A DNA stretch of 64,000 bases from Candidatus Sungiibacteriota bacterium (GCA_016180435.1 JACPBG010000002.1:60342-124341); one strand, 5' to 3'. Shown: positions 10,955 to 55,410, counted from the stretch's first letter. Made by a program: numbers and translations. The notes: generated by a model not told the origin, from the sequence alone.

Positions 10955-11075
10955 TCAATTTCAGACACGACTCAACCGCTCCGGCGGCGGTCTCGCTAAG
11001 GGTCGGACAAATTTTCGTCCCGATTGCGATCGGGATGATCCAAGCAAATTTGTCCTCCCATTGTCTGAAATTTAA
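10955..11075. repeat. MITE-like element, family C copy 1 (~120 bp; TIRs aatttcagacac / cattgtctgaaat).
   Basis: Near-identical copy at 14064..14182 and a diverged copy at 23850..23957. Internal inverted repeat ggacaaattt / aaatttgtcc. Confidence 0.8.
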
Positions 11076-11106
11076 ATTATTTCCTCGCTTATTTTTTAAA
11101 AAATGT

Positions 11107-11223: not shown

Positions 11224-11242
11224 GGCTCTTACGAGCCAGCAT

Positions 11243-11307
11243 CAAGAACTAAGATTTTAGAACTTAGCAAATTTTCTAAGTTCTAAGTTCTGGGTTCTAA
11301 GTTCTAT
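11243..11307. repeat. Palindromic 'tagaac' element (family A), intergenic between rpmJ and rpsM.
   Basis: agaactaagattttagaacttagc...ctaagttctaagttctgggttctaagttcta inverted repeats. Confidence 0.85.
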
Positions 11308-11696: not shown

Positions 11697-11780
11697 AATA
11701 AAGCACTTAGAACTTAGAACCTAGAACTTAGTAAATCTGCTAAGATCTAAGTTCTTGAATGCTAAGTTCTATGTTGCGAA
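11697..11780. repeat. Family A palindromic element, full-length unit including the terminal GAAG-loop hairpin atgttgcgaagcaacat abutting the rpsK start.
   Basis: aagcacttagaacttagaacctagaacttag...ctaagatctaagttcttgaatgctaagttctatgttgcgaagcaacat. Confidence 0.85.
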
Positions 11781-11786
11781 GCAACA

Positions 11787-12230
11787 TTGGGTAAAAAGCG
11801 TATCATAACTAAATCTACCGAGTCATCCGAATCGAAAAAATCCGATAGCCAGCCGCCAGCCGGAATTTCGGTAACGCGGCGTGGCATACTGCGCGGTTGC
11901 GCTTATATTCAGGCAACTTATAATAACACCATTATTACCATAACCGACGAAAAGGGCGGCGTGATAGCGTGGTCTTCGGCCGGGTCCGTTGGATTTTCGG
12001 GAACCAAGAAAGCCACTCCGTTTGCAGCAGCGCGAGTCGCGGAATTCCTTGCTGAAAAAATGCGTAAAGCCGGTATTCAGGAGCTTATGGTTTTTGTAAA
12101 AGGGGTTGGATCAGGGCGTGATTCGGCGATTCGTGCGCTTGCCAATCAGGGGTTTGCCATTTCGCGCATCAAAGATATTACCCCCATCCCGCATAACGGG
12201 CCGAGACCCAGGAAACCAAGAAGAGTATAA
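11787..12230 (+). CDS. rpsK: Ribosomal protein S11.
   Basis: [45 protein letters not shown]. Confidence 0.9.
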
Positions 12231-12322
12231 AGCACTTAGAACTTAGAACCTAGAACTTAGAATTTATAATTAAAGTATTTACTAAGTTCTAAATACTAAG
12301 ATCTAAGTTCTTTTGCGAAGCA
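12229..12322. repeat. Family A palindromic element, full-length, ending with the tttgcgaagcaaa hairpin just before the rpsD start.
   Basis: Same 5' sequence (aagcacttagaacttagaacctagaacttag) as the 11697 and 52465 copies. Confidence 0.85.
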
Positions 12323-12950: not shown

Positions 12951-13072
12951 GACAGTGATGCCAATCCGATGCGAATTTAATGCCAATTTGGCGAATTGCG
13001 AATGAATTTAAAGATTAGCAATTTGTAGATTAGCATTTTATTTGTAGATTTGCATCATTGCGTGCGAAGCAT
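12951..13072. repeat. Family D ~120-bp cassette (candidate promoter module) upstream of rpoA. Second copy at 29548..29670 upstream of frr.
   Basis: gtgatgccaatccgatgcgaatttaatgccaa...atttgtagattagcat...tttgtagatttgcatcattgcgtgcgaagca present twice in the window, each directly before a start codon. Confidence 0.75.
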
Positions 13073-14063: not shown

Positions 14064-14182
14064 TTTGATTTCAGACACGACTCGGCGGCTCCGGCGGCCG
14101 CCTCGCTAAGGGTCGGACAAATTTTCGTCCCGATTGCGATCGGGACGATCCGAGCAAATTTGTCCTCCCATTGTCTGAAATC
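14064..14182. repeat. Family C MITE-like element, copy 2.
   Basis: About 95% identical to 10955..11075. Confidence 0.8.
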
Positions 14183-14250
14183 AAAATAGCCTCGATTTAA
14201 TCCAAGCTAATTACGAATTCTAAAATTTCCAACGCTAACGATGAAAAAAT

Positions 14251-14595
14251 ATGAGGAAGTTGAAAAAAGGGAGAAAATTTGGGAGAGAACGGGATCAAAG
14301 GAGGGCGTTACTTAAAAGTCTCGCCTCCTCATTTTTTATTGCGGGACGAATGAAAACAACGGAAGCCAAAGCCAAAGAACTCCGCCCGTATGTCGAGAAA
14401 TTCATTACCCGAGCCAAGGATCCGACACTCGCAAATCGAAGATTCATGCTGCGTTTTTTTTCGAGCGCAATTGTTGATAAAATTATTAAGCGTGGTGAGG
14501 AAATGCGTGAGAGAGCCGGAGGATATACCAGGGTTATTAAATTGGGACAGAGAAAACGAGATAGCGCGAGGATGGCGATATTGGAATTTGTTTAA
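14251..14595 (+). CDS. rplQ: Ribosomal protein L17.
   Basis: RKLKKGRKFGRERDQRRALLKSLASS...TTEAKAKELRPYVEKFITRAK. Confidence 0.85.
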   Translation: MRKLKKGRKFGRERDQRRALLKSLASSFFIAGRMKTTEAKAKELRPYVEKFITRAKDPTLANRRFMLRFFSSAIVDKIIKRGEEMRERAGGYTRVIKLGQRKRDSARMAILEFV

Positions 14596-14683
14596 AGAAC
14601 TTAGAACTTAGAACTTAGAACTTAGATATCTACTAAGTTTTAAATGCTAAGTTCTAAATGCTATGCGATGGAGCATCGCATTG
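14595..14683. repeat. Family A palindromic element overlapping the rplM 5' end.
   Basis: aaagaacttagaacttagaacttagatatctactaagttttaaatgctaagttctaaatgctatgcgatggagcatcgcat. Confidence 0.8.
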
Positions 14684-29543: not shown

Positions 29544-29547
29544 AAGC

Positions 29548-29670
29548 AGTGATGCCAATCCTATGCGAATTTAATGCCAAGCTGGCGAATTGCGAATAAT
29601 TATTAGCATAATTAGCAATTTGTAGATTAGCATAAGATTTGTAGATTTGCATCATTGCGGTGCGAAGCAC
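29548..29670. repeat. Family D cassette, copy 2 (upstream of frr).
   Basis: See 12951..13072. Confidence 0.75.
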
Positions 29671-38617: not shown

Positions 38618-38822
38618 GTTGTTTTCATCGCGGCGTGTCATTCAGGTCCTGGAGCGCCAGGGCTTTGTTTTTATTTCTCAACGGGGAAGTCACGCCAAAT
38701 ATCGCAAAACCGGTCCGCATACATTTACCGCGATTGTCCCTGTTGGGAAAAAGGAGATTCCACACGGAACTTTTCGTTCTATTGTACGCCAATCAGGATT
38801 ACAGGAGGAGAATTTTGAATAA
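38610..38822 (+). CDS. hicA: HicA-like mRNA interferase toxin.
   Basis: 70 aa. VIQVLERQGFVFISQRGSHAKYRK matches HicA/YcfA. Overlaps hicB by 8 nt. Confidence 0.65.
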   Translation: MPKLFSSRRVIQVLERQGFVFISQRGSHAKYRKTGPHTFTAIVPVGKKEIPHGTFRSIVRQSGLQEENFE

Positions 38823-40593
38823 AATTATAAGCAATCAAGAAACAAAAATCTGTCAAAATTGTAAAAACGAGTTCACCATTGAATCGGTTGACTTTGCATT
38901 CTACGAAAAAATCCGTGTGCCGCCGCCCACCTGGTGTCCGGAGTGTAGGATGGTGCGGAGGATGGTGTTTAGAAACGAGCGCAAACTTTTTCGCATAAAA
39001 AGCGCGAAATCCGGCAAAGAAATTTTATCGTTAAATCCGCCGGAAGCCGGTGTTGCGGTTTATGATGAAAAAGAATGGTGGTCGGATGATTGGGATGCCC
39101 GAGAATACGGGAGAGAATATGATTTCTCGCGGCCGTTTTTTGATCAGTTTTTCGAGTTGTCGAGGGTTGTTCCGCGTTACAGCCGCGATGTCCTGAATAT
39201 GGTCAATAGCGATTATTCCGCCAATGCCGCTGATCTAAAAAATTGTTACCTTTTGTTTAACTCAAATTACAGCGAGGATTCTTCATACGGAAACGCCGTG
39301 GATAAATCACATTTTTGTTTTGATAATTCGCATATTCAAAAATGTGAAAGATGTTACGAGTCATTTTGGCTGGCAAATTGTTACCAGACCCATTTTTCCT
39401 CCAAGTGCGAGGATTGCCAGAGTGTATGGTTCTCAAAAAATTTACGCGGATGCAGCAATTGTTTCGGATGCGTGAATCTGCGCGGGAAAAATTACTGCAT
39501 TTTCAACAAGCAATATTCCAAAGAAGATTATATCAAAAAGTTGGAATCGTTTTCTTTGCATACTTTTTCCGGAATCACGGCAGTAAAGAAAACGGCGCTG
39601 GATTTTTGGTTAAAATTTCCCAACAAATATATTGAGGGCGTTAAAAATCTAAATTCATCCGGGGAATATGTTACGCATTCCAAAAATGTGCATCATGGTT
39701 ATTTGGTGCGTGAAGGGGAAGATTTGCGCTATGTCCAGTATGTGCAGCTGCCGCCCTCTAAAGATCTGATGGATATAACTGTCGGAGGGAACGGCATGGA
39801 ATTATCATATGAAAATGCGACAAGCGGTTGGGGCAGGGTTTATAACTTGAAATTTTGTGCGGAATGCTGGCCGGAGGTTCGGGATATGGAATATTCAATG
39901 TTTTGTACCTCATCCTCCAATCTTTTCGGGTGCGTGGGTCTTCATAAAAAAGAATTTTGCATTTTAAATAGGCAATATACGAAAGAATCCTTTGACCAGC
40001 TCAAGATAAAGATTATTAAACATATGGATGAAATGCCATATGTTGATTCGCGCGGCCGGGCGTATAAATATGGGGAGTTTTTTCCGCCGGAATTGTCGCC
40101 GTTTGCCTATAATCAAACTATTGCCATTGAGCATTTTCCTTTAACCAAAGAAGAAGCCGAGAAAGCGGGGTACAGATGGCAGGAGCCGACAAGGCGCGAA
40201 TATGAAATAACCATGACTGTGGATGAAATTCCGGATTCGATCAGGGATATCCGCGAAGACATTCTAAAAGAAGTTATTCAATGCGCGAGTTGCAAACGGG
40301 CGTATCGCCTGATACGTTCCGAATTGGAATTTTTGAAGAAAGAAGGCATTCCGGCGCCCAGAGTTTGCATTGACTGCCGGCATGACGAGCGTATCAGCCA
40401 AAGAAACAAAGCAATTTTTTATTCGCGCCGATGCGCGTGCAGCGGCCAAAATTCCGGGAACGGGGCGTATAAAAATACTGCTACTCATTTCCATGGTCCA
40501 AATCAGTGCCTTAATGAATTTAAAACAAGTTATGCGCCGGACAGGCCGGAGATAGTGTATTGCGAAGCGTGCTACAATTCTGAAGTTGTATAA
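38815..40593 (+). CDS. Cys-rich multi-zinc-ribbon protein, paralog A (probable TTG start; the long ORF-track N-terminus overlapping hicA is probably spurious).
   Basis: N-terminal CQNCKNEF...IRVPPPTWCPECR; internal repeats NCFGCVNLRGKNYCIFNKQY and NLFGCVGLHKKEFCILNRQY; C-terminal CASCKRAYRLI...CIDCR and YCEACYNSEVV. About 35% identical to 41377..43101 over the full length. Confidence 0.6.
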   Translation: MNKIISNQETKICQNCKNEFTIESVDFAFYEKIRVPPPTWCPECRMVRRMVFRNERKLFRIKSAKSGKEILSLNPPEAGVAVYDEKEWWSDDWDAREYGREYDFSRPFFDQFFELSRVVPRYSRDVLNMVNSDYSANAADLKNCYLLFNSNYSEDSSYGNAVDKSHFCFDNSHIQKCERCYESFWLANCYQTHFSSKCEDCQSVWFSKNLRGCSNCFGCVNLRGKNYCIFNKQYSKEDYIKKLESFSLHTFSGITAVKKTALDFWLKFPNKYIEGVKNLNSSGEYVTHSKNVHHGYLVREGEDLRYVQYVQLPPSKDLMDITVGGNGMELSYENATSGWGRVYNLKFCAECWPEVRDMEYSMFCTSSSNLFGCVGLHKKEFCILNRQYTKESFDQLKIKIIKHMDEMPYVDSRGRAYKYGEFFPPELSPFAYNQTIAIEHFPLTKEEAEKAGYRWQEPTRREYEITMTVDEIPDSIRDIREDILKEVIQCASCKRAYRLIRSELEFLKKEGIPAPRVCIDCRHDERISQRNKAIFYSRRCACSGQNSGNGAYKNTATHFHGPNQCLNEFKTSYAPDRPEIVYCEACYNSEVV

Positions 40594-41376: not shown

Positions 41377-43101
41377 ATGACACGACAATGCCAAAATTGT
41401 AACCAGAGCTTTGAAATTGCCCCCGAGGACCTTTCGTTTTACGACCGCATTCATGTCCCGCCGCCCACCTGGTGTCCAAGATGCCGGTTTCAGAGACGGC
41501 TCGCATTTTTTAATTTAACCGCGCTTTACAAGCGAAAATGCGATCTTTGCGGCGAGGAAAAAATTTCCATTTATCGTCCGGATGCGCCTTATAGAGTTTA
41601 TTGTCCGCCCTGCTGGTGGTCGGATAAGTGGGACCCTATGCAATATGGACGTGATTACGATTTTTCACGATCGTTTTTTGAGCAATACGCTGATCTTGTG
41701 CATGAGGTCCCGCACTGCGGCTTGGCAACTGACCATACGACGGTCATCAATTCAACCTATACCAATCACGCCGGAAATCTCAAAAATTGCTATTTGTTAT
41801 TCCAGGCGGATTTTAATGAGGACTGCGCGCACGGAGTATATGTTAAAAATTCAAGGTCCACGCTTGATTCCTCATTGATATTGAAATCCGAACTCTGCTA
41901 TGACTCCATGCACTCATATAAAAATAGCCATTGTGCGGGACTGCGAAGCCAGGTGACCAATTCGCTTGATTGTTACTTTCTCAAGGACTCATTTAATTGC
42001 CAGTATTGTTTTGCATCCGCCAATTTGCGAAATCGGAAGCATGTTATTTTTAATAAGCAATATTCTCCGGAAGATTATTTTAAGGAAATCGCGAGATGGG
42101 ATTTAGGTTCGTACGCCAAGTATCAAGAGATCAAATGTCTTGCCGAGGCGCACTGGAAAACTTTGCCGCCCAAGCCGCATATGGATGATTTTTCCGTAAA
42201 TTCATCGGGCAGCCATTACTTCCAGTGCAAAAACTGCAAGGATTGTTTTGAGGTGTGGGGCGAGGCCGAAGACAGTAAGTTTCTTTTTATGCTTTCCATT
42301 CCTCCGTTGAAAGATTGTTACGACGTATCAACCTGGGGCAATAATTTGCAGTTATCGTATGAATCATATGCAGTGGGCGAGCAGGGCGCCAATCTTAAAT
42401 TTTGTGCGGAGTCGGGTATCAATGCGCATTTACTGGAATATTGCAAGTTTACATTCGGAGGGGTGGAGGATTTCGGATGCGTTGGGTTGCGAAAGAAACA
42501 ATACTGTATCTTGAATAAACAATATACGAAAGAGGAGTATGAGAAAATGGTGCCAAAAATCAAGAAGCATATGGATGAAATGCCGTATATTTCAGAAATC
42601 CGAAATCCGAAGCACGAAATCCGAAAGATAATATATAAATACGGGGAATTTTTTCCGATAGAATTGAGTCCGTTTCCTTATAACGATACTGTGGCGCATA
42701 ATTTTTTCCCGCTTACCAAAGAAGATGCGTTGGCACGGGGATATAAATGGGGCGATAAAGAAAAAAGAGCTTATCCCATCACAATAAAGGCAAGCGATCT
42801 GCCGGATCATATCAAAGATGCGCCAGGTACCATTTTACAGGAAGTGATAGAATGTGTTGCATGCGGCCGGGGATTTAGAATCATTCCGATGGAGTTTAAA
42901 TTTTTACGAAAAATGAATTTGCCTTTGCCTCGGCAATGCCCGTTTTGCCGGATTGATGAGAAATTCACACTGTGGGTTAAAGATTTACGGGTTATCCCGC
43001 GGACGTGCGATAAGTGCGGCACATCGCTCACGACCAATTACACGCAAGAGGAAGCCCCTGTGATTTATTGCAAAGCATGCTATAATAATGAAGTAATATA
43101 A
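41377..43101 (+). CDS. Cys-rich multi-zinc-ribbon protein, paralog B.
   Basis: CQNCNQSFEIAPEDLSFYDRIHVPPPTWCPRCRFQRR; repeats NCQYCFASANLRNRKHVIFNKQY and DFGCVGLRKKQYCILNKQY; C-terminal YCKACYNNEVI. Confidence 0.65.
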   Translation: MTRQCQNCNQSFEIAPEDLSFYDRIHVPPPTWCPRCRFQRRLAFFNLTALYKRKCDLCGEEKISIYRPDAPYRVYCPPCWWSDKWDPMQYGRDYDFSRSFFEQYADLVHEVPHCGLATDHTTVINSTYTNHAGNLKNCYLLFQADFNEDCAHGVYVKNSRSTLDSSLILKSELCYDSMHSYKNSHCAGLRSQVTNSLDCYFLKDSFNCQYCFASANLRNRKHVIFNKQYSPEDYFKEIARWDLGSYAKYQEIKCLAEAHWKTLPPKPHMDDFSVNSSGSHYFQCKNCKDCFEVWGEAEDSKFLFMLSIPPLKDCYDVSTWGNNLQLSYESYAVGEQGANLKFCAESGINAHLLEYCKFTFGGVEDFGCVGLRKKQYCILNKQYTKEEYEKMVPKIKKHMDEMPYISEIRNPKHEIRKIIYKYGEFFPIELSPFPYNDTVAHNFFPLTKEDALARGYKWGDKEKRAYPITIKASDLPDHIKDAPGTILQEVIECVACGRGFRIIPMEFKFLRKMNLPLPRQCPFCRIDEKFTLWVKDLRVIPRTCDKCGTSLTTNYTQEEAPVIYCKACYNNEVI

Positions 43102-51829: not shown

Positions 51830-52465
51830 ATGGCAGACACTAACTTTTCAAAAGGAGAATTAAAGAAAATACGCGCCACAGACGCACTTAAAAGAAAGAA
51901 ACTAAAGCGAATTATTTGGATTATCGCGGTTGTGGTTGTATTGGCGGGCGGAATCTATTGGATTGTGCGTTATAATAAAGAAAAAAAGGCGAACCTTCCG
52001 GGTATATTTTATACAGATGTGGGGCAAGACCATATTGGATTAAATGATGCGCCGCCCAAGCCCTATAGTTCCAATCCACCCTCATCCGGCGGGCACTACG
52101 GCCAGTGGGCCAATTGGGGCGTGTATGATTATGAAGTGAATGATAAGATATTTATGCATAACCTTGAGCATGGGGGAATTTGGATCGCGTACCGGCCGAC
52201 CGTATCACCGCCAATTATTGATGATTTGAAGGGAATCGTAAAAGAGTTCGGCGGATCAAAATTAGTTATGGCGCCGCGCTCGGCTAATGATGCGGATATC
52301 GCAATTGTATCGTGGGCCAGAGTTTTTAAATTTGATGTATCAGGGAAAAATTTGACCGATTCGGAAAAAGAGCAAATTCGCGCATTTTATCGGGGATTTA
52401 AAAATCGAGGTTTGGAATTTGTGCCCGACACCATGCCGGGAGTTGATCCGAAGAGTATTCAATAA
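51830..52465 (+). CDS. DUF3105 membrane-anchored protein.
   Basis: PPSSGGHYGQW...HNLEHGGIWIAYRP, the DUF3105 signature. Confidence 0.6.
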   Translation: MADTNFSKGELKKIRATDALKRKKLKRIIWIIAVVVVLAGGIYWIVRYNKEKKANLPGIFYTDVGQDHIGLNDAPPKPYSSNPPSSGGHYGQWANWGVYDYEVNDKIFMHNLEHGGIWIAYRPTVSPPIIDDLKGIVKEFGGSKLVMAPRSANDADIAIVSWARVFKFDVSGKNLTDSEKEQIRAFYRGFKNRGLEFVPDTMPGVDPKSIQ

Positions 52466-52553
52466 AAGCACTTAGAACTTAGAACTTAGAACTTAGAAAA
52501 ATAACTAAGATCTAAGTTCTTAATGCTAAGTTCTACGTTGCCGAGCAACGTTG
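52465..52553. repeat. Family A palindromic element, full-length, with the terminal acgttgccgagcaacgt hairpin.
   Basis: aaagcacttagaacttagaacttagaacttag...ctaagatctaagttcttaatgctaagttctacgttgccgagcaacgtt. Confidence 0.85.
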
Positions 52554-52574
52554 TTGTATGACGTTATCATCATC

Positions 52575-52618
52575 GGCGGCCCGCCCCGATTTCTGTCGGG
52601 GCGAGGCTCGCCCACAAC
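52575..52618. repeat. GC-rich palindromic element (family B) at the trxB 5' end.
   Basis: cccgccccgatttctgtcggggcgaggctcgccc, flanked by a diverged duplication of the trxB N-terminal codons. Confidence 0.75.
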
Positions 52619-52621
52619 CTT

Positions 52622-53593
52622 ATGTTATATGATGTAATAGTGGTGGGCGGCGGACCGGCCGCAGTTGCGGCGGCGGTTTATTGCGCGCGCAAACGCCTAA
52701 AGACCGTATTGATTACCGAATCATTCGGCGGGCAATCTATTGTTTCGGATGATATTCAGAATTGGATCGGCGAGCCGCATATTTCCGGTTTTGATTTGGC
52801 TAAAAAATTTGAAGATCATGTGCGAACATATCCTGATGTGGTTGATATTAAGATGCCGGAAAGGGCGATGGAAGTAAAATCAATTAAATGTACGGACGAC
52901 ACCCGCAACTGCGATTTTCAGGTAAAAACCGAGCAAGGGAATATATATGAAGGAAAAGCGGTAATTCTTACTGCTGGCGCGAGCCGCCGAAAACTTGGCA
53001 TACCCGGAGAGGAAAGGTTAAACGGCAAAGGAGTGGCGTATTGTTCAACCTGTGATGCTCCGTTATTCTCCGGCAAAAAAGTCGCGGTGGTGGGTGGAGG
53101 AAATGCCGGGCTGGAAGCGGTGATTGATCTTTTCCCTTATGCCGAGGAAGTTTATCTGGTGGAATACGGGGAGGCATTGAAAGGCGATCCGGTTACGCAG
53201 GAGGAAATTAAGAAAAATCCGAAATTAAAAGCAGTTATTTTGAACGCGCAAACATTAGAAGTGCTCGGTGATAAATTCGTGGCCGGATTAAAATATAAGG
53301 ATCGCATAACCAATGAAGAAAAGATTTTGGAGGTTGACGGGATATTTGTTGAAATCGGCTCGGTTCCTAACTCCGAAATGGTTAAAGGTTTGGTGGACTT
53401 GGATAAATACGGGCAGGTGGTTATTGATTCCAAGCACGCCTCCACCTCGCATCCGGGAATTTTTGCCGCCGGAGACATTACGGATGATCCGTATAAGCAA
53501 AATAACATCTCGGCCGGGGATGCGGTAAAAGCCGCTTTGGGCGCGTATAATTATTTATTGCAGAGAAAAAAAGAGAGTCCGGCGAGCGAATAA
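52622..53593 (+). CDS. trxB: Thioredoxin-disulfide reductase.
   Basis: YDVIVVGGGPAAVAAAVY FAD fold, the CSTCDAPLF redox-active CxxC, and an NADPH-binding GGGNAG. Confidence 0.9.
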   Translation: MLYDVIVVGGGPAAVAAAVYCARKRLKTVLITESFGGQSIVSDDIQNWIGEPHISGFDLAKKFEDHVRTYPDVVDIKMPERAMEVKSIKCTDDTRNCDFQVKTEQGNIYEGKAVILTAGASRRKLGIPGEERLNGKGVAYCSTCDAPLFSGKKVAVVGGGNAGLEAVIDLFPYAEEVYLVEYGEALKGDPVTQEEIKKNPKLKAVILNAQTLEVLGDKFVAGLKYKDRITNEEKILEVDGIFVEIGSVPNSEMVKGLVDLDKYGQVVIDSKHASTSHPGIFAAGDITDDPYKQNNISAGDAVKAALGAYNYLLQRKKESPASE

Positions 53594-54015: not shown

Positions 54016-55410
54016 ATGTCAACATTCTTCGAAAACACTAAAAAATTTATTGAAGACGCCGTGCGTATCGCCTATATTCCGGGCGATATTTTAGGACGTT
54101 TGGAAAAACCGGATAAAGTATTAGAATTTGAAATTGCGGTTGGTGATAACCCCGTTAGAGACCCGATGCCTATGGCATCGGCAGACGCCGAAGGGCGTCT
54201 TGTCTCTAACGGGGCGAGAAAATTTCAAGCATGGCGTGTCCAACATAATAACATCCTTGGTCCTTACAAAGGTGGAATCCGCTATCATCCGGATTCAAAT
54301 TTGGATGAGGTAAAAGCGCTGGCCTCTTTGATGACTTTGAAAACCTCCCTTGCCGGGATTCTTTTTGGCGGAGCTAAAGGCGCGGTAAGAGTTGATCCGC
54401 GTAAATTATCCCTGCAGGAATTGGAAGAATTATCGCGCATGTACGTCCGTGCAATTTGGCAAGAAATCGGGCCGGAAAAAGATGTTCCGGCGCCGGATGT
54501 CGGCACTACCCCGCAAATTATGGATTGGATGACGGACGAATATTCGAAACTCATCGGAAAATTGAGTCCGGCCGCCCAGCAGAGTGGGGCGAGCCTCGCC
54601 CAAAATGGGCGGGCGGGATTCACTGGAAAATCTATAGAAAAAGGCGGTTCCCGCGGCCGCGATATTGCCACCGGTTTTGGCGGGTATGTAATTTTGAGAG
54701 AATTTTTAAATCTAAGTTCTAAGTTCTTAGTTCTAAGTTCTGAATCGCAACTAGTGGTTGCGATTCAAGGTTTCGGTAATGTCGGCGCAAATATCGCTAA
54801 AATCTTATATGAAAAAGGATTTAAAATCGTGGCCATTTCCGATTCCAAGGGGGCGCTTTATGAGGAAGATGGCATTGATATTAAAAAAGTTTTGGATGTA
54901 AAAGAAAAAACCGGCATTATAGATCGCAACAAGTGCTATGCGGTTTCCGAGGAGCGGCTGGCATCCGGTACTCCCTGTCGCGAATTTACCAACGATGATT
55001 TATTGCAAATGCCGGTGGATATTTTGATTCCGGCTGCGCTTGAAAATGTTATCAATGAAGCGAACGCGGAAAAAATTAGAGCTAAAGTAATTTTGGAAAT
55101 GGCCAATGGTCCGGTTACTCCCGAAGCTGAAAAAATATTCACTAAGCGAGGAATTGAGGTGCTACCTGATATTTTAGCCAATAGCGGGGGAGTGGTTGGA
55201 TCGTATTTTGAATGGGTGCAAAATCGTAAAGGAGAGCAATGGAGCGAGGAGGAGGTGCTTGCGAAAATTGATGAAAAATTGACCGAGGCGTTTCAGAGTG
55301 TACAAAAAATTAAGGAGGAATGCAATGTTTCGTGGCGTATGGCATCATACGTACGGGCGATTAAGAGGGTTGCGGAAGGGAATAAAAATCCGCCTTTTGG
55401 GGCGGTATAA
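54016..55410 (+). CDS. gdhA: Glutamate dehydrogenase, carrying two in-frame repeat insertions.
   Basis: KGGIRYHPDSNLDEVKALASLMTLKTSLAGILFGGAKGAV and the GFGNVG NAD(P) fold. The inserted segments AAQQSGASLAQNGRAGF and NLSSKFLVLSSESQLVVAI are encoded by repeat families B and A. Confidence 0.9.
   Translation: MSTFFENTKKFIEDAVRIAYIPGDILGRLEKPDKVLEFEIAVGDNPVRDPMPMASADAEGRLVSNGARKFQAWRVQHNNILGPYKGGIRYHPDSNLDEVKALASLMTLKTSLAGILFGGAKGAVRVDPRKLSLQELEELSRMYVRAIWQEIGPEKDVPAPDVGTTPQIMDWMTDEYSKLIGKLSPAAQQSGASLAQNGRAGFTGKSIEKGGSRGRDIATGFGGYVILREFLNLSSKFLVLSSESQLVVAIQGFGNVGANIAKILYEKGFKIVAISDSKGALYEEDGIDIKKVLDVKEKTGIIDRNKCYAVSEERLASGTPCREFTNDDLLQMPVDILIPAALENVINEANAEKIRAKVILEMANGPVTPEAEKIFTKRGIEVLPDILANSGGVVGSYFEWVQNRKGEQWSEEEVLAKIDEKLTEAFQSVQKIKEECNVSWRMASYVRAIKRVAEGNKNPPFGAV

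Follow-up and report, generated by a model that had tools for sequence, protein, structure and literature searches.

A GC-rich hairpin element and a second gene start within the 5′ end of a trxB-like gene of Sungbacteria

Repetitive extragenic palindromic (REP) elements and REPINs are extragenic and are mobilised by RAYT (IS200/IS605-like) transposases, and to our knowledge capture of cargo inside a hairpin loop is not a feature of REP elements. A review of the Rickettsia palindromic elements (RPEs) and of repeats of the miniature inverted-repeat transposable element (MITE) type mentions no RPE or MITE with a spare gene start, and the terms "start codon" and "N-terminal" do not occur in it (PMC10969869). 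The islands and prophages inserted at dusA are kilobases long, with a tyrosine integrase and 21-bp att repeats (Farrugia et al. 2015, PMC4482086). Here we describe a locus of Candidatus Sungiibacteriota bacterium in which a GC-rich palindromic element and a second copy of the gene start lie within the 5′ end of a trxB-like gene. The locus is part of a stretch of 64,000 nucleotides (nt; GCA_016180435.1, JACPBG010000002.1:60342-124341; GC content ~44%), hereafter called the window. We put at roughly 60% the probability that a miniature GC hairpin element with a captured trxB 5′ end has inserted here site-specifically, and has done so in several lineages independently.

The live trxB-like open reading frame (ORF; 52622 to 53593, 323 amino acids, found by ORF search and carrying Pfam Pyr_redox_2/3 domains) opens with what we call copy 2, or the spare start. 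Copy 2 (52622 to 52654) reads ATG TTA TAT GAT GTA ATA GTG GTG GGC GGC GGA, encoding MLYDVIVVGGG, and replaces the first ~10 to 11 codons of the gene; CCG follows the GGA, and the live protein begins MLYDVIVVGGGP from the ATG at 52622. Upstream lies copy 1, the old trxB start (52554 to 52580; like all features given here, on the plus strand), which the sequence gives as TTG TAT GAC GTT ATC ATC ATC GGC GGC, encoding (M)YDVIIIGG. It lacks an ATG: TTG TTG precedes TAT, the additional TTG lying at 52551, and the start is either TTG or a decayed ATG.

Directly after copy 1 (52580) comes CCGCCCCGATTTCTGTCGGGGCGAGGCTCGCCCACAACCTT, and the GC-rich stretch between copy 1 and the spacer reads CCGCCCCGATTTCTGTCGGGGCGAGGCTCGCCCA. 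This palindromic element (52581 to 52614) consists of hairpin 1 (CCGCCCCGA..TCGGGGCG), a central palindrome, GGGGCGAGGCTCGCCC, and the 5′ arm of hairpin 2. The spacer, CAACCTT (52615 to 52621), abuts the live ATG and contains no Shine-Dalgarno-like sequence; the ACCTT before the ATG is missing from the ordinary trxB loci compared. Hairpin 2 (52609 to 52649) is formed jointly by element and gene, the 5′ arm CGCCCAC of the former pairing with GTGGGCG in the Val-Gly-Gly codons of copy 2, and its loop contains the spacer, the ATG and 6 to 7 codons. The region from 52574 to 52655 folds with a z score of -4.2. A 27-codon upstream ORF (uORF; 52554 to 52637, YDVIIIGGPPRFLSGRGSPTTLCYMM*) starts at copy 1, reads through the hairpins and ends at TAA 52635-52637, 14 nt inside the live ORF. 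The composite insert is ~70 nt long and interrupts trxB at codon 10, separating the second Gly codon of its GxGxxG motif from the third.

Over the 24 nt coding for Y..GG, copies 1 and 2 are identical at 17 positions. Five of the 7 differences are synonymous and in third positions, and two are first-position changes from Ile to Val; the copies further differ by one Leu codon and by the third Gly codon, which is missing upstream. The upstream peptide is identical at 6 of 8 residues to the N-terminus of its own gene, a situation found for the trxB-like ORF only among the 101 window ORFs of at least 100 amino acids, and that 6/8 score was reached by only 2 in 5000 shuffles of the 150 nt that lie upstream. 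The original prediction, made from the sequence alone, had recognised that the N-terminal codons occur twice in diverged form, with the real start downstream and a dead-frame copy upstream, and both the sequence and the ORF bear this out. Another flavoprotein gene of the window was considered as a source of copy 1 and rejected, as its product begins MRYDYLIIGGG and does not match. The Leu codon missing upstream was dropped as a marker, since the TTG TTG before copy 1 may include a Leu codon.

A scan of 80 metagenomic trxB loci revealed one further carrier of the composite, L015; L088 and L089 were added when 185,579 species genomes were scanned by pattern. The L015 composite is also present in L090, an independent assembly of the L015 genome. 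As seen in an alignment of the four carriers (alignment A3), their common parts are an upstream (M)(L)YD[VI]IIIGG, then CCGCCC-loop-GGGCGAGSCTCGYCCA, a spacer, YNACMTT(T), in which that of the window is homologous to those of L015, L088 and L089, and a live start, ATG YTW TAT GAT GTA ATW ... GG. All four composites lie at the same trxB codon. In all four the uORF stops 9 to 16 nt inside the live gene, in L015, L088 and L089 by a TGA located 9 to 11 nt inside, and minimum-free-energy folds give the same two hairpins, with hairpin 2 enclosing the new ATG.

Two of these loci carry oddities of their own. The NCBI annotation of the L088 trxB (764-1777; P0139) is 338 rather than 317 amino acids long, i.e., 21 amino acids too long; it runs from an ATG in the upstream copy across the hairpin element in a different reading frame, and is thus an annotation error caused by the element. 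L089 (CAYJUL010000074.1) is labelled Candidatus Saccharibacteria, a label that may be wrong because the locus resembles those of Sungbacteria/Parcubacteria in its trxB unit, its heptamer palindromes and the arrangement of DUF3105 and trxB. Its upstream copy has seven ATC codons, vs three or four Ile/Val codons in the others. The short N-terminus of another protein, P0159, was discarded as a biological feature, as it reflects a contig end only.

The nearest relatives of the carriers lack the composite. Those closest to the window are L005/L008 and L006 (TrxB 92% identical) and L007 (86 to 88%), and the gene order of the window is kept in them. The flanking genes of L005/L008 are 81% (DUF3105) and 76 to 77% (gdh) identical to those of the window; the flanks of L007 are similar, but its DUF3105 match spans only 60 residues, and the L006 locus excludes the upstream gene. 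In L005/L008, L006 and L007, trxB opens with ATG TAT GAY GT right after an intergenic palindrome of its own, with neither a GC element nor a second copy. In the window, the DUF3105 gene (51830-52465), an AT-rich heptamer palindrome (52466-52534) and a small hairpin (52535-52551) precede the element in this order. Copy 1 therefore marks the ancestral start position, because the ATG of the relatives sits there, after the intergenic palindrome. The possibility raised by the original prediction that a longer trxB N-terminus was interrupted by the element is contradicted by these relatives, whose N-termini are of normal length. Similarly, the nearest relatives of L015 (L092, L093 and L099) and of L088 (L094, L096 and L097) have no hairpins and no second copy. 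The carriers are not each other's nearest relatives by TrxB, and the DUF3105 protein of the window is 81% identical to that of L005 vs 61% to that of L015.

The two copies have distinct histories. All four upstream copies encode an intact N-terminus, YD[VI]IIIGG, with minimum numbers of changes of 1, 0 and 8 at the first, second and third codon positions. Compared with the functional start of a relative, the upstream copy has 3/24 mismatches in the window (against L008; 29/240 in the gene body), 5/24 in L015 (against L099; 54/240) and 3/24 in L088 (against L094; 40/240). The L088 upstream copy moreover follows the DUF3105 stop as stop-TTTT-ATG, exactly like the single start of L097. Judged by these alignments, the upstream copies look native, as their divergence from relatives equals that of the gene bodies, which points to their having served as functional starts until recently in each lineage.

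The downstream copies differ from the same relatives by 7 to 8/24 mismatches, vs 2 to 4/24 from those of the other carriers compared. The nearest match to copy 2 of the window among 67 distinct trxB starts is copy 2 of L015 (22/24). The latter differs by 1 to 2/24 from the single starts of L092 and L093, vs 58 to 63/240 in the gene body. Pooled over copy-2-type starts, mismatches amount to 25/240 (10%), vs 701/2400 (29%) in the adjacent gene bodies. In 924 control pairs of ordinary trxB with similar body divergence, the mean was 5.5/24, and only 2% of the pairs had 2 mismatches or fewer. The opening TATGATGTAAT occurs in 4/4 downstream copies vs 6/67 ordinary starts. When likeness was compared with that of random quartets of ordinary starts, P values of 0.016 and 0.20 were obtained for the downstream and upstream copies, respectively. 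These observations point to a more recent common origin of element, spacer and downstream copy than of the host genes. With upstream copies that resemble the host and downstream copies that are shared, they argue for repeated, site-precise acquisition of one composite.

L092 and L093 have a start of the unit type and no hairpins, and the 5 nt between trxB and the gene before it are similar to parts of the spacer. Such loci could represent a resolved end state, reached once both the old start and the hairpins had been deleted. These two loci had suggested that the downstream copy is native in L015, a reading that was reversed by L099 and by the comparison with gene-body divergence. We also attempted to locate a recombination breakpoint inside trxB; this was abandoned, as relatives at 85% nucleotide identity are too distant to resolve a 30-nt segment. 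The different histories of the copies, with the upstream one resembling L008 and the downstream one those of distant carriers, speak against a simple local duplication at the gene start, which had been offered as an explanation initially. The idea that the element had captured a fragment of a host gene comes closest to our reading, with the roles reversed: the live start downstream would be the captured piece, and its upstream counterpart the ancestral leftover.

The trxB element belongs to a family with further members in the window. Its core, GGGGCGAGSCTCGCCC, matches the window 6 times, on both strands of each of three sites (523, 52598 and 54586), vs 0.67 matches expected by chance. The two other sites are full-length copies in frame within mnmA (507 to 558; GIGG[RPAERGEPRPKGAG]GIPYY) and gdh (54570 to 54621; 14 additional codons), 92% identical to each other over 52 nt and made of two adjacent hairpins of the form CGCCCC-loop-GGGGCG. 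Because the 14 codons are missing from the gdh genes of three relatives (L005, L007 and L090), comparison of these sequences indicates that the family inserts into genes. All three window copies sit inside coding sequences, and the trxB copy alone is out of frame and interrupts its gene. In this copy hairpin 1 is present, and of hairpin 2 only the 5′ arm; the Val-Gly-Gly codons of copy 2 substitute for the usual 3′ arm. No further exact or near-exact copies of the 39-nt trxB element were found in the window, where only the family core recurs, and the gdh insertion site shows no clean target duplication. A phage origin was rejected, as neither the unit pattern nor the family pattern was found in IMG/VR. 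Rfam gave no match above its gathering score, no sigma-70-like site was found in 52350-52750, and a literature search on in-frame palindromic elements of the candidate phyla radiation (CPR) returned nothing relevant.

A distant Parcubacteria lineage harbors another copy of the family (L047, 296-345), in frame in a DsbA-like thiol-disulfide protein (AAPVGASLAQQNVGRD) and read in the same frame as the gdh copy of the window (GASLAQ).

How such a composite might arise and persist can be outlined as follows. A family member located beside trxB would adopt the GTG GGC GGC run of the gene as a surrogate 3′ arm; the run resembles the GGGCGGGCGG arm of the family. The element would so capture a short spacer and the ATG with ~10 codons within hairpin 2, and the composite would then insert at the equivalent run of Gly codons of another trxB, regenerating the gene. 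A plain in-frame insertion within GxGxxG would presumably destroy binding of flavin adenine dinucleotide (FAD). With the composite, TrxB made from ATG 52622 would be kept intact, because the insert supplies a new start together with the displaced codons. The old start would persist as the head of the 27-codon uORF through the hairpins. Ribosomes translating the uORF would melt the hairpins, terminate just past the new ATG and probably reinitiate there. Coupling seems to be the native mode of expression of the gene, because in the relatives trxB starts 4 to 5 nt after the stop of the upstream gene; it is less certain in the window, because the uORF has only TTG starts there. Some lineages may later delete the old start and the hairpins, which would complete the replacement of the N-terminus. 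We advance more tentatively, as less probable than not, a bolder version in which the family is actively mobile and non-autonomous. By carrying the first 10 trxB codons in its own loop, one lineage of it would be able to settle, in a self-healing manner, in an essential gene at a position where insertion is otherwise lethal, spread horizontally between Sungbacteria and overwrite the native start, with expression relayed by coupling from the abandoned one.

Several observations weigh against acquisition of a mobile composite. The hairpin-1 loops are wholly different between lineages, which argues against recent copying of the units from each other. The structure has no terminal inverted repeats and consists of two adjacent hairpins, and of the flanking 6-nt direct repeats (GGCGGC / GGCGGG; GGYGGS), only those of the window and L088 are perfect, those of L015 and L089 being imperfect. 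In the 64-kb window and the short loci covered, neither a mobilising enzyme nor an excised form was encountered, nor was any polymorphism for presence or absence within a species; no search aimed at RAYT/TnpA was made. As the upstream copy of the window lacks an ATG, the uORF may be untranslated there. The distinction between native and foreign copies in the window is clear against L008 and ambiguous against L006 and L007, and the identity of copy 2 between the window and L015 (28/33) is no outlier along the gene. Finally, the likeness of the downstream copies could partly reflect constraint at the nucleotide level, since TAT GAT GTA A closes the two other frames with stop codons, GTG GGC GG forms a hairpin arm and what remains is an AT-rich loop.

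Some of these points would also follow from a single ancient event, in which a hairpin inserted and the start was duplicated in tandem in a common ancestor of Sungbacteria, with vertical inheritance and later losses of either copy, e.g., by slippage between GGCGGC repeats. Both the full divergence of the hairpin-1 loops and the unexceptional identity of copy 2 between the window and L015 agree with it, as does the split of the relatives into those with copy-1-like (L008, L094 and L099) and copy-2-like (L092 and L093) starts. Precise excision between short direct repeats around palindromes is a known process. This scenario nevertheless requires many independent losses, and upstream copies that would have been non-coding ever since still encode perfect N-termini, with their 1/0/8 pattern of changes and a divergence like that of the gene bodies, while the downstream copies are ~3 times less diverged than the gene bodies. 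We regard it as unlikely, if deserving of some weight. Homologous recombination of the 5′ region between lineages through conserved trxB flanks appears improbable to us. Natural transformation is plausible in these bacteria, and TrxB is conserved enough (75 to 92% at the protein level, 71 to 88% at the DNA level over the first 240 nt), but each lineage would need two junctions no more than a few bases away from the insert. The upstream copy remains host-like, and so is the sequence just after GGCGGCGG: window positions 52655-52710 match L006 at 56/60 and are very unlike L015. Exchange of this kind is disfavored because host-like sequence resumes within a few bases on either side.

Alternatively, slippage or repair at a hairpin could have doubled the first 30 nt of the host gene in each lineage separately, followed by divergence. 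There is a precedent in L062, where a doubled, host-derived start flanks an unrelated 1.4-kb insert at the same site. Yet within carriers the two copies form the most different pair (14 to 18/24 identical), as opposed to 20 to 22/24 for downstream copies across lineages. The spacers are common to lineages, and the downstream copy of the window has a Leu codon that its nearest relatives lack, such that we see little chance of independent local duplications. No more credible is programmed bypassing, by which ribosomes would leave the last upstream Gly codon, skip ~60 to 70 nt and land on a matching downstream Gly codon, so that both starts would give TrxB. Selection on both copies at the protein level would account for the purely synonymous divergence of the upstream copies. 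The putative take-off codon forms part of the base of a strong hairpin, with Pro-Pro codons next, and GC-rich, mobile bypassed inserts are known from yeast mitochondria and phage T4 gene 60 homologues (10.1101/2022.08.31.505936). The last upstream Gly codon equals the second downstream one in three of the four lineages (GGC/GGC in the window and L015, and an L088-specific GGG/GGG). In L089 the codons are mismatched (GGC vs GGT GGA GGA) and the upstream Ile run is expanded. Furthermore, no stop follows the putative take-off codon, CCG CCC being next in 4/4 lineages, and bypassing has no need of the complete, conserved start, ATG included, that lies in the gap. The upstream copy of the window has no ATG, and L092 and L093 function on the downstream-type start alone. 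As for a collapsed or chimeric repeat, or another artefact of sequencing or assembly, a check for which had been proposed at the outset, nothing speaks for it beyond the general difficulty of assembling repeats. Four independent assemblies from different runs (Logan, L001-L004) contain the upstream copy and are 100% identical to the window across the whole feature, and the same architecture, differing in sequence, recurs in three further lineages, one of which (L015) is represented by two assemblies; on these two grounds we consider an artefact excluded for practical purposes.

The 1.4-kb insert of L062 (105-1535) has a single ORF of 440 amino acids with an N-terminal hydrophobic segment and no Pfam family. 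It is flanked by near-identical copies of the trxB start (ATG..GGTGGGGG), with 2 differences in ~30 nt. The upstream copy begins 7 nt after a promoter-like site, TTGATA-17-TATAAT, and the stop of the uORF headed by the old start overlaps the ATG of the inserted ORF (ATGA). This layout indicates that the trxB 5′ site tolerates another kind of insertion with the same arrangement.

The 323-residue protein has a CSTC motif as well as its Pyr_redox_2/3 domains and is identical to an NCBI protein from a Candidatus Sungbacteria metagenome-assembled genome. It scores 340 bits with the NCBIfam AhpF model (cut-off 503), over the C-terminal half of AhpF, and 271 bits with TRX_reduct (cut-off 343). It is a flavoprotein of the low-molecular-weight thioredoxin reductase / AhpF C-terminal type, best called trxB-like because its scores are below both cut-offs.

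Other repeats are present in the window. AACTTAG/CTAAGTT heptamer palindromes constitute a second family, with copies both intergenic and in frame inside mnmA and gdh (116-188, 760-821 in mnmA, 11237-11305, 11701-11756, 12230-12311, 14595-14662, 52466-52534, 54711-54755 in gdh and 58768-58804). Related lineages have heptamer palindromes of their own at equivalent places, e.g., CTACAACCTATAACCTACAACC in the gdh of L005, with numerous variants in front of trxB. A GC palindrome of a third type (54145-54215), with an outer stem CCCCGTTAGAGAC/GTCTCTAACGGGG around two small hairpins, adds ~22 in-frame codons near the N-terminus of gdh that are not in the gdh genes of L005, L007 and L090. The window also has repeats at 10958-11077 and 14068-14187 (120 nt, 93% identical) and at 12953-13062 and 29547-29659 (~110 nt, 94%). 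Two large ORFs (38635-40593 and 41377-43101) are paralogous, Cys-rich (zinc-ribbon-like) and internally repetitive.

If insertion of a captured gene start is the correct explanation, a ~70-nt selfish element without a gene carries the piece of the host that it displaces, a strategy known so far from kilobase-sized islands with an integrase, such as those at dusA. It would provide a route for horizontal exchange of a start and the first codons that leaves the protein unchanged and that gene-level phylogenies would miss. The element is also a source of annotation errors in CPR genomes, and would be a natural test case for uORF-mediated reinitiation, and possibly bypassing, in bacteria with reduced translation machinery.

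Like REP elements and REPINs, the elements described here are GC-rich, made of adjacent hairpins, a few tens of nucleotides long, non-autonomous and devoid of MITE-type terminal inverted repeats; unlike them, they are intragenic. The position of the uORF stop, past the downstream ATG in all four carriers, resembles that in termination-reinitiation coupling, which we predict here from the sequence. With bypassing of the T4 gene 60 type and the mitochondrial byps, the locus has in common a GC-rich, putatively mobile hairpin insert in a coding sequence, with Gly codons on either side, which match in three of the four carriers, and a hairpin that starts at the first. It differs from the T4 gene 60 type by the lack of a stop after the first Gly codon and by the full alternative start in the gap, and its expression can be explained without bypassing. 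RPEs and MITE-like repeats are likewise multicopy short palindromes found in frame in unrelated housekeeping genes, here mnmA and gdh, with orthologues that lack them, as seen here for gdh (PMC10969869). In contrast with RPEs, the elements of this family are 40 to 50 nt long and very GC-rich, with no detectable sequence relation to them, and the trxB copy is out of frame, interrupts its gene and carries a replacement start. In the latter respect the locus is like the dusA islands (PMC4482086), which occupy a single site in the 5′ end of a conserved gene, the old 5′ end being kept outside while the insert supplies a new one and the protein stays intact. Unlike those islands, the insert is here ~70 nt long, has no ORF but the uORF and no integrase between the copies, and its flanking repeat is only 6 nt. 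By the defining features of these groups, the composite belongs to neither the RPE-like nor the dusA-type family.

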